Origin: a virus
Lineage: Duplodnaviria > Caudoviricetes
Strand: one strand, 5' to 3'
Virus record (IMG/VR): IMGVR_UViG_3300048574_000181
Location: 1-24,833 of that record
DNA length: 24,833 nt
Positions 6,569 to 8,039 of the stretch are shown here, one piece after another. How positions within the stretch are numbered: position 1 is the stretch's first letter; each line of letters starts with the position of its first letter. The notes under the pieces are model-generated. The model was given only the letters and a program-made list of their open reading frames with translations. It was not told the DNA's origin and ran no database searches. A program made the translations under genes and the position numbers.

Positions 6569-7761
6569 ACGACCGCCCGGCCTACAGTTTGGACCCGGGT
6601 CCGCCGCCGGAGGCCTCGCGCTTCCTGCGCAACAAGGGCCTTATTCCGAGCTTCAGCTGGCAGGACGTCGAGCCGGAGGAGCATGCGGTCGCCTTCACCG
6701 TCGCCAAGGCGATGCAGATCGACGTCCTCGAGACGATCCGCGAGGAAGTTCAGCGCGCGCTGGACGATGGCCTGCCGCTCGCGGAGTTCCGGCGCACACT
6801 GCGGCCGCGCCTCGAGAAGCACGGATGGTGGGGTGTGAAGGCGATGGTCGATCCGGAGACCGGCGAGGCGAAGGAAGTGCGCCTCGGCACGCCGCGCCGC
6901 CTCAGGACGATCTACAATGCGAACATCCGCTCGGCGCGCGCGGCCGGCCAGTGGGAAAGAATCGAGCGAGCGGCGCGCGCATTTCCCTATCTCGAATACC
7001 GGCTCGGACCCTCGGAACGCCACCGCCCGCACCACGCAATCAAGGAAGGTCTGATCATCCCGGTCGACGATCCGTTCTGGGACGAATGGATGCCGCCGAA
7101 CGGCTGGGGCTGCAAATGCTGGGTGAGGCAGGTGTCCAAGGCGGAGGCCGAGCGGCGCGGCATCGATCGCGCGCCGCTTCTGCCGAAGCGCCGCGTCCTG
7201 AACAAACGGACGGGCGAGATGAGGGAGGTCCCGGTCGGGATCGACCCGGGATGGGAGAGAAACCCCGGGAAGTTGAGGTTGCAGGCGATCGAGGCGGTCC
7301 TCGCCGAAAAGATCGAGGCGCTGCCGGAGGCCGCGGCGCGGGCAGCCGTGCTTGACATCGCCACCAGCTGGCGGGCGGAGCGCGTTCTCCTCGGCAGGGC
7401 ACCCGGAGCCGTTCCCGTCGCCGTCCTTCCCGGCGCCGTGGCAGCGGCCATAGAGAGCGGAACCACTGTCGTTCAGATGACAAGTTCCTACGGCGACAAG
7501 TTCAACCTCCGCAACAGAAGCGTCACCACCGACACGCTCATGATCATGGACGATGCGCTTCGGACGGGGATCCTGATCCTGGAAGAGACGGATGGAGGTT
7601 CGACGCTGCACGTCCTCTCGCGCGGCGATGCCGCCTGGCAGTTCGCGCTGAAACTCGTCCGCGCACAGCGTCAGGTCTGGATAAAGACCATGCACCGATC
7701 GCGGCCATCCAGGGCAAAAGCGGTGCTTCGCCGGCCGGGTACGAGATCGATCAGGGATTGA
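6565..7761 (+). CDS. MuF (gp30) minor head protein with C-terminal PBECR-like extension
   Basis: SFSWQDV..EEHA.AFTVAK, RRLRTIY.AN.RSA..AGQW, RHRPHH, DDPFW...PPNGWGCKC and GIDPGW..NPG identify Phage_Mu_F. About 130 further aa follow, ending WQFALK...VWIKTMHR. GTG start overlaps the portal stop. Confidence 0.9.
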   Translation: MNDRPAYSLDPGPPPEASRFLRNKGLIPSFSWQDVEPEEHAVAFTVAKAMQIDVLETIREEVQRALDDGLPLAEFRRTLRPRLEKHGWWGVKAMVDPETGEAKEVRLGTPRRLRTIYNANIRSARAAGQWERIERAARAFPYLEYRLGPSERHRPHHAIKEGLIIPVDDPFWDEWMPPNGWGCKCWVRQVSKAEAERRGIDRAPLLPKRRVLNKRTGEMREVPVGIDPGWERNPGKLRLQAIEAVLAEKIEALPEAAARAAVLDIATSWRAERVLLGRAPGAVPVAVLPGAVAAAIESGTTVVQMTSSYGDKFNLRNRSVTTDTLMIMDDALRTGILILEETDGGSTLHVLSRGDAAWQFALKLVRAQRQVWIKTMHRSRPSRAKAVLRRPGTRSIRD

Positions 7762-7762
7762 A

Positions 7763-7830
7763 GCGCCCGGGAGGTCATTACCCCTCCGCAGTCACATGGA
7801 CTGGCTGAACGTTTTGCTCGGGCGCATCCA
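7763..7830 (+). ncRNA. Putative multi-stem structured RNA immediately downstream of muF (not a canonical tRNA)
   Basis: Closing stem GCGCCCG (7763-69)/CGGGCGC (7819-25). Hairpins GGAGG (7770-74)/CCTCC (7783-87) and CAGTC (7789-93)/GACTG (7799-7803), plus a weak third arm (7804-17). Ends in ATCCA. Confidence 0.5.
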
Positions 7831-7915
7831 GAAGGTATGCCTCGCCGAGACCGAAATCAAGCGCCAGGTTCCAAGCCGACCGCCCGGCGGCTGCGGCAAG
7901 GCGTCTGGGAGCGCC

Positions 7916-7931
7916 GTTAAACGGTAGTTAA
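7916..7931 (-). promoter_or_regulatory. CtrA-type box TTAA-N7-TTAAC
   Basis: Plus strand GTTAAACGGTAGTTAA; its reverse complement TTAA-CTACCGT-TTAAC equals the alphaproteobacterial CtrA consensus. Intergenic, in DNA where TTAA is rare. Confidence 0.5.
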
Positions 7932-8039
7932 AGGCCCTTGTCGGGCTGGGGGGCTACCTACTACGCTGCGACACGGGAAGGCCGCTCTACGGGCCTCCCA
8001 GGGTGCGTCGCGGTTTTCTGCCGGTGAGGCCCTCCCGGC

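Follow-up and report, generated by a model that had tools for sequence, protein, structure and literature searches.

A tRNA-shaped, pseudoknotted RNA behind the predicted BECR-type domain of Mu-like phage MuF proteins is a candidate RNA immunity gene

The window analyzed here is the whole 24,833-nt Caudoviricetes record IMGVR_UViG_3300048574_000181, a single virus record that is 63% complete. It covers the part of a Mu-like phage genome that encodes lysis, head, and tail functions (Mu gp27, terminase, Mu portal, MuF, protease I, gpT capsid, baseplate, and sheath), and it has close relatives in Paracoccaceae and Roseobacteraceae. The muF gene is flanked by the portal and protease genes and encodes a long form of the protein, in which Pfam Phage_Mu_F spans residues 57 to 187 and the PHROG 220 match is to minor head protein and DNA pilot (for coordinates of all features, see Table 1). 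Placement in the head module and a variable C-terminal extension, which MuF polymorphic toxin systems require, are both found here. The muF stop codon is the TGA at 7759 to 7761. In the ORF listing, which covers ORFs of ≥50 aa, no plus-strand ORF starts between 7761 and 8003, and the slot behind the stop is filled by an RNA element, designated class A, and its predicted promoter. This agrees with the claim of a first-pass annotation that an RNA occupies the slot of the immunity gene. The virus record contains one copy of the class A element.

The structure model of the MuF C-terminal domain has a pLDDT of 91.9 and shows a helix leading into a meander sheet of four to five strands. Its best match over the domain is BrnT (Z 5.6, rmsd 3.0, 74 residues aligned), followed by CdiA-CT NC101 (Z 5.3, rmsd 4.0, 87 aligned), RelE (RelE/HigB, Z 4.0), and colicin D (Z 3.9), all of which are weak matches; the top Foldseek row is also CdiA-CT NC101, with an E value of 0.36. 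The CdiA-CT NC101 toxin cuts tRNA. The stretch's own domain has no Pfam match, and a PDB sequence search with the domain profile returned nothing, while the same profile collected 859 representatives at an E value of ≤0.001. Among 120 relatives scanned from the best 150 of these representatives, 18 match PBECR3 at an E value of ≤0.01, weakly and with 1 above the cut-off. A search of the Atlas returned PBECR3 clusters at 0.87, which we take as a lead only. The conserved residues of the domain are K312, which lies in the helix, K363, T375, which corresponds to the C-terminal Ser/Thr position, H377, and R378. BECR RNases carry a His or Arg in the N-terminal helix. This MuF has N317 at the site of the KxxxxH His of its relatives, and many RNA-bearing relatives keep the His. 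Because this His is missing from the stretch's own subfamily while the RNA is retained, the catalytic activity of the subfamily is uncertain. Based on the model, these weak matches, and the relatives, we regard the domain as a predicted PBECR3-like BECR ribonuclease. The same domain is also found behind a PT-TG pre-toxin domain and within a MuF-BECR-ART fusion (P0044 and P0144).

Table 1. Positions of the muF gene, the RNA element, and its predicted promoter in the window
Feature	Position	Strand	Basis or remark
muF (Mu gp30-like minor head/DNA pilot protein), long form, 398 aa	6565-7761	+	Pfam Phage_Mu_F, PHROG 220
MuF C-terminal domain, predicted BECR-type alpha/beta fold, PBECR3-like	7396-7758	+	structure model, weak fold matches, relatives
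Class A RNA, tRNA-shaped pseudoknotted non-coding RNA gene (predicted), 63 nt	7763-7825	-	covariation, covariance model, promoter polarity
P1, acceptor-like stem, 5' strand, 7 bp; partner 7763-7769	7819-7825	-	covariation
Pseudoknot strand, D-like region; partner 7776-7779 in T-like loop	7808-7811	-	covariation
Short anticodon-position hairpin	7789-7803	-	covariation
T-like arm, 5 bp, abuts P1 3' strand	7770-7787	-	covariation
Predicted -10 box TACCTT	7832-7837	-	ends 6 nt ahead of first base of P1
Predicted -35 box TTGATT, 17-nt spacer	7855-7860	-	conserved sigma70-type motif

The first-pass annotation had described a closing stem (GCGCCCG with CGGGCGC), two hairpins (GGAGG/CCTCC and CAGTC/GACTG), and a weak third arm. 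The three stems are at the claimed sites, corresponding to P1, the T-like arm, and the anticodon-position hairpin, and the structure covaries among homologues, the check that the annotation had proposed. Aligned across 23 homologues, the structure has 92.6% of its cells paired, and two-sided changes occur in 15 of its 23 pairs, compared with only 34 to 43% pairing in slid controls. The shuffle control ignores kinship among the rows, and its value is no probability. Two-sided changes are found in 6 of the 7 pairs of P1 (99.4% of cells paired), in 3 of the 5 pairs of the T-like arm (98.3% paired), and in 4 of the 5 pairs of the anticodon-position hairpin, in which the pair closing the loop is frayed. 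P1 has 7 bp and the T-like arm 5 bp in most homologues, giving a tRNA-like 7+5-bp coaxial helix, and the anticodon-position hairpin has a stem of 3 to 5 bp and a loop that varies in length and sequence. The third arm is indeed weak, a poorly kept 2-bp stem whose second pair forms in 15 of 23 rows, but its loop pairs with the T-like loop as a pseudoknot, which had been overlooked. On the minus strand, the pseudoknot pairs are C-G, G.U, U-A, and U-A. The central pair forms in 22 of the 22 rows that have letters there, 8 of them through a two-sided change, and the helix is 92% paired. When 53 rows are fitted to the covariance model, 94.8% of cells pair.

With differing sequence, the element recurs behind long MuF genes among 50 viral loci, and it is also carried by Ochrobactrum phage POA1180. 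The first covariance model has 34 matches in 53 sources (its own training rows included) and 53 further matches at an E value of ≤0.005 in 94 additional sources. Every match in both sets is behind a MuF gene and on the strand opposite to muF. Class A RNA behind MuF is thus an uncatalogued element that is conserved across relatives. It is not readily found by its folding energy: the exact 64 nt have folding z-scores of −2.95 on the plus strand and −2.87 on the minus strand, the value with flanks is −1.78, and z falls below −2 in just 3 of 17 homologues, with a class A median of −0.85. The folding z-score is therefore a poor detector of the element, and covariation is the decisive evidence.

A true tRNA or a catalogued RNA family was considered and rejected. 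ARAGORN reports no tRNA at the element or in 22 loci, and Rfam has no match at the element, nor at the element in 17 loci of this kind. The cloverleaf order, in which a T arm of 5 bp stacks on an acceptor stem of 7 bp, is seen on the minus strand only, and the element is without a canonical D loop, T loop (the loop of the T-like arm differs from it), 7-nt anticodon loop, or 3' CCA. The element is tRNA-shaped, yet it is no tRNA, and the earlier statement that canonical D and T loops are absent is borne out. An intrinsic terminator, which the first-pass annotation had also discounted, was likewise rejected; none was detected at the element on either strand in a search for a single hairpin plus U tract. 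A stop-codon readthrough or SECIS-like signal was rejected as well (the stops are 33 TGA, 11 TAA, and 9 TAG, with 0 to 92 open codons beyond).

The first-pass annotation had read the RNA on the plus strand, with the sequence ATCCA as its 3' end, and here the conserved promoter contradicts it. Of 53 loci, counted without one at a contig end, 48 have a TTG..17..TANNNT motif just past the element on the minus strand. The opposite strand has it in 2, shuffles have it in 5.3 on average and in 12 at most, and it is present in 1 of 29 RNA-less loci. Among the 48 promoter-bearing homologues, the spacer is 17 nt in 43 and the distance from the −10 box to P1 is 6 nt in 30. Because the −10 box of the stretch ends 6 nt before P1, the predicted start is 7825, the first paired base. 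ATCCA then separates the −10 box from the predicted start, and CCA occurs within those 5 nt in just 3 of 53 homologues. A plus-strand RNA with a CCA end was rejected on the basis of the promoter strand and this count. In two loci (L228 and L229) the cassette is flipped into the muF sense and the promoter stays at the same end of the RNA, which settles the polarity of the RNA. Each of the tandem copies in two other loci (L038 and L111) comes with a promoter of its own, and the copies are not alike in their stems and knot. A generic promoter scanner did not flag the predicted minus-strand promoter. A strand test of G.U versus A.C pairs is not significant over all pairs (26 versus 18, P = 0.29) and gives 18 versus 4 without the two frayed pairs, the latter being a post hoc hand count. 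The class A RNA is therefore predicted, from sequence, to read from 7825 to 7763, converging on the muF stop; neither a terminator nor a conserved CCA marks its 3' end. The region of the Mu-like phage RcapMu is present in 18 public RNA runs, and the four examined are contigs over the whole region, which are blind to small RNA, strand, and level. Three same-sample runs and one other contained none of its sequence words, from which nothing follows.

The presence of the RNA follows the state of the domain. We compared 131 MuF loci; 5 truncated ones were excluded, and 112 are distinct. After removal of three near-duplicates and one other family, the long BECR-like set has 72 rows, and 67 of these have an RNA behind the domain (53 found by the first model, 2 by a second model, 7 of class B, and 5 by eye only; the last are 5 of the 14 RNAs that are not class A). 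The RNA is missing behind 24 of 25 short MuF genes, so the co-occurrence check proposed in the first-pass annotation supports its claim, with the limit that the loci are related and the counts are not independent events. The beta4 residue is Ser/Thr (one Asn) in all 67 RNA-bearing long domains. In contrast, all five long forms without RNA (L008, L026, L098, L107, and L163), which branch separately at five points of the MuF tree, are without the beta4 Ser/Thr, and four of them are also without the helix Lys/His. The sole exception among the 25 short forms is a Brevundimonas locus (L159:2261-2330), in which the RNA is directly behind a short MuF, apparently after deletion of the domain. A decayed domain with no gap behind it is found in L251, Pseudomonas phage Fc02, and phage Mu gp30, which overlaps the next gene. 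The available portion of PMC5512222 calls phage Mu gp30 inactive. Behind 11 MuF-ART forms, no class A-like element was seen by eye, and the 3 of the 11 that were searched with the model gave no match. One genome has eleven Mu-like copies (L149 to L158 and L160) with three or four MuF tail variants and a different sequence behind each. We take these tails, by motif, to be ADP-ribosyltransferase-like domains, and the sequences behind them are probably immunity ORFs.

The RNA also moves with the domain. Over 51 nonredundant loci, RNA identity has a partial rho of 0.33 with the MuF tail and of 0.17 with the MuF core, and where nearest neighbors differ, the RNA sides with the tail in 31 cases and with the core in 5, although such cotransfer could also be expected from adjacency alone. 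In L008, L010, and L014, the MuF core is the same, the tails differ, and the RNA is different or absent. A second model was used to survey 150 genomes of one family, scoring 33 candidates per genome, so that its totals of at least 19 places in at least 9 genomes are lower bounds. Of the 19 places listed, 5 are behind a MuF tail and 14 have no detected BECR gene adjoining. Several of these orphans are tandem sets of mixed types that resemble the RNAs of different tails. In one case, an orphan pair is flanked by gemA and an HTH gene within a mini-Mu element of 8 kb. This element has Mu transposase, MuB, GemA, capsid, and protease and lacks portal, terminase, MuF, and tail, and the genome that contains it has no MuF match. 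We infer that this element is a satellite. Loss of the RNA with active-site decay, cassette swapping, and orphan arrays are support that the first-pass annotation had not foreseen. Its proposal of a cognate RNA in the immunity slot of a BECR-like MuF domain thus agrees with the comparative tests, with the exception of the strand and the 3' CCA.

A compact mini-Mu in L259:5900-13536 (G446:C1) has two different class A RNAs between gemA and an HTH gene, and L230, L234, and L239 (G490) are similar. Elements of this type carry repressor, MuA, MuB, GemA, HTH, gpT capsid, and protease genes, no portal, terminase, MuF, or tail gene was seen in them, and they are likely Mu-like capsid-forming satellites. 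Orphan class A RNAs with promoters that appear to be chromosomal (L227 in G504 and L223 in G490:C13) were also seen; the chromosomal orphans adjoin tRNA-Pro in one case and a lipocalin gene. In L222 (G441:C5:163436-163666) and L237, three different RNA units are arranged head to tail with a single promoter, which suggests a processed multi-unit transcript. Solo BECR ORFs of ~100 to 150 aa with a convergent structured RNA are found in L246, L248, and L252, and the one in L246 adjoins an IS1595 transposase gene and resembles a stand-alone toxin-antitoxin cassette.

Structured RNAs of other classes occupy the same position. Class B is a four-way junction with covarying stems, found at 14 loci that are all behind BECR-like domains, and it has U.G at one pair in 13 of the 14 when read on the promoter strand. 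PBECR2 (Pfam) is matched in 30 of 401 genomes, giving 27 usable loci after two contig-end loci and one below the cut-off were left out. On the opposite strand behind the stop, loop-loop complementarity at these loci is 3.88 nt versus 2.57 nt in shuffles, compared with 2.71 versus 2.59 at 30 control loci. Complementarity of ≥4 nt is found at 13 of 27 PBECR2 loci and at 1 of 30 controls, and the P values (about 4e-5) overstate the case because the loci are related. The RcapMu PBECR2 locus has a promoter and two complementary loops. Several unrelated kissing-loop RNAs follow the PBECR2 domains of L189 to L216 and L218:7500-7590, and some RNAs of PBECR2 loci finish with a terminator hairpin, the loop of which serves as the kissing partner. 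A longer RNA class was seen behind muF in AT-rich genomes (L184, L186, and L185); the T-loop of the L184 RNA looks canonical, a hint of descent from a tRNA, and ARAGORN makes no call there.

Taken together, the comparisons indicate that the class A element is inherited together with the MuF C-terminal domain and likely yields a small RNA. The reading that we favor, and hold to be reasonably probable, is that it is an RNA immunity gene for a predicted virion-delivered BECR RNase, since intact domains are not maintained in the absence of the RNA, yet the RNA survives alone and in mixed sets. The separate promoter and the free orientation further indicate action in trans. In such a system, a lysogen would make the RNA constantly, and MuF would be packaged and then injected along with the DNA. 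Packaging and injection with the DNA are known for SPP1 gp7-type proteins. In cells without the matching RNA, the MuF tail would cleave tRNA or mRNA, while the RNA may mimic the tRNA elbow and acceptor helix and so occupy the enzyme, thereby shielding producer cells while late genes are being expressed and protecting the lysogen from infecting kin. Mini-Mu elements without MuF would gather RNAs of several types as protection against the MuF that their helper injects. Virion injection has been proposed for PBECR fusions in the available portion of PMC5512222. We lean, by a little, toward the broader proposal that virion-delivered BECR RNases with tRNA-mimicking or kissing-loop RNA immunity are a widespread, undescribed system that is cassette-swapped, occurs solo on IS elements, and has its orphans hoarded by Mu-like satellites and host chromosomes.

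A different possibility, rather improbable in our estimation, is that the domain is an RNA-binding or RNA-processing carrier and the RNA its cargo or effector, in an RNP that would be packaged or made in the lysogen, for example as a decoy against host tRNA-cutting defenses or as a host-factor mimic. The tRNA-like shape (7+5-bp helix and loop-loop elbow), the missing helix His of the stretch's subfamily, and the persistence of orphan RNAs without a detected domain, including the chromosomal copies by tRNA-Pro and the lipocalin gene, are all consistent with this, as is the RNA binding suggested for inactive PBECR domains in the available portion of PMC5512222. However, the RNA is lost when the conserved residues of the domain decay and yet lives without the domain, which fits an antidote and not a carrier-dependent cargo, and the arrays of mixed RNA types carried by mini-Mu elements without MuF look like collections of orphan immunity genes. 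In addition, the promoter looks like a housekeeping sigma70 promoter and faces against the late operon, which makes a virion-packaged RNA less likely. The orphans would also fit a domain-independent function of the RNA.

The remaining explanations keep the element at its own locus or deny it a present function. Antisense pairing or transcriptional collision that damps muF or late-operon read-through, in a type I-like manner, would be in keeping with an RNA that is convergent, lies few bases from the stop in most loci, and has no terminator to keep its transcript out of muF. We nevertheless think such cis action quite unlikely, given that the sense-oriented copies in L228 and L229 have their own promoter, orphan and tandem copies are far from muF, the folded part is outside the coding sequence, and a tertiary pseudoknot is preserved by compensatory change. 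It is still harder to see the element acting as DNA, that is, as a protein-binding or recombination site for the exchange of MuF C termini or as a single-stranded DNA fold in packaging or ejection. The element does mark the edge of the swapped cassette, and its fold is almost equally stable on both strands, but a promoter at a fixed distance from the first paired base travels along with it, tandem copies included, and promoter-strand G.U pairs are tolerated (as in class B). Least credible of all is the idea that the element is what remains of a tRNA gene or an attachment site and is functionless today, for which the minus-strand tRNA arm order and the canonical-looking T-loop of the distant L184 class could speak. 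The extensive compensatory change largely refutes it, there is no anticodon loop or CCA and no ARAGORN call in the 22 loci, and the element is retained or lost according to the condition of the neighboring domain.

The fold of ToxN differs from a BECR-like fold. Compared with MuF polymorphic toxins, for which the available portion of Jamet 2017 (PMC5576092) describes protein immunity and many Proteobacterial MuF extensions of unknown kind, the present system has the same MuF N terminus, exchangeable C-terminal effector, and adjoining portal gene, and its cognate partner is likewise directly downstream and travels with the C terminus. Unlike in that source, the partner is a structured RNA gene with its own predicted promoter, usually on the opposite strand, instead of a small ORF. 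The Pfam families concerned are PBECR3 (PF18812), PBECR2 (PF18810), and MuF_C (PF18819). PBECR domains, as far as covered in the available portion of Iyer 2017 (PMC5512222), share the BECR-like MuF C-terminal fusion, the predicted RNase activity, and the predicted injection; the stretch's domain differs in falling below Pfam cut-offs and in having Lys/Asn where the family has His, and no partner RNA is described in that portion. If the favored reading holds, there is also a likeness to the type III systems ToxIN, CptIN, and TenpIN (Goeders 2016, PMC5086642, in its available portion), in which an RNase is neutralized by a pseudoknotted noncoding RNA and tandem copies occur. There, the antitoxin repeat array precedes the toxin within a single operon, a terminator separating the two, and the knots are H-type; here, the RNA is downstream of the toxin domain, separately promoted, mostly single, and convergent, with a multi-way junction and a covarying loop-loop pairing of another topology, and the predicted toxin is a BECR-like fusion to a virion protein. 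In AbiF/RCd22 RNA (bioRxiv 10.1101/2025.04.15.648962, available portion), a prophage toxin is similarly neutralized in cis and in trans by binding of a neighboring noncoding RNA, but the protein is Abi_2/AbiD/F, linked to Cas13, and neither BECR nor virion. The DUF3800-associated motifs, drum, and skipping-rope (Weinberg 2017, PMC5737381, available portion) are alike in that one domain has many unrelated RNA folds, in either orientation and some with terminators, and unlike in that the protein family is another one, and Rfam gave no match to any of these motifs.

An RNA partner of MuF or PBECR is undescribed in the literature searched, while supplements, non-Rfam motif catalogues, and subscription papers could hold the motif. 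In the available portions of the sources, polymorphic-toxin immunity is described as protein-based and RNA antitoxins guard cell-internal toxins; an RNA immunity gene for a phage-head-injected toxin, if true, would join both concepts. It would also give a testable role to the unexplained Proteobacterial MuF extensions (PMC5576092, available portion) and PBECR domains (PMC5512222, available portion), provide many natural RNase/RNA-inhibitor pairs of differing specificity, and point to a Mu-like satellite class defined by its RNA cargo.

Three further features of the window were observed. A weak terminator-like hairpin on the minus strand at 7863 to 7880, the tail of which overlaps the −35 box, might insulate the RNA promoter. 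An Acb2/Tad1-family protein is encoded at 1111 to 1368, directly behind the lysozyme gene (Pfam PF24729, E value of 6.5e-15); this is the anti-CBASS/Thoeris nucleotide sponge family. An AT-rich inverted motif at 7910 to 7940, ahead of the protease gene, recurs in both long and short MuF loci, and because it closely follows the stop in short forms, the RNA cassette is placed between the stop and this motif.
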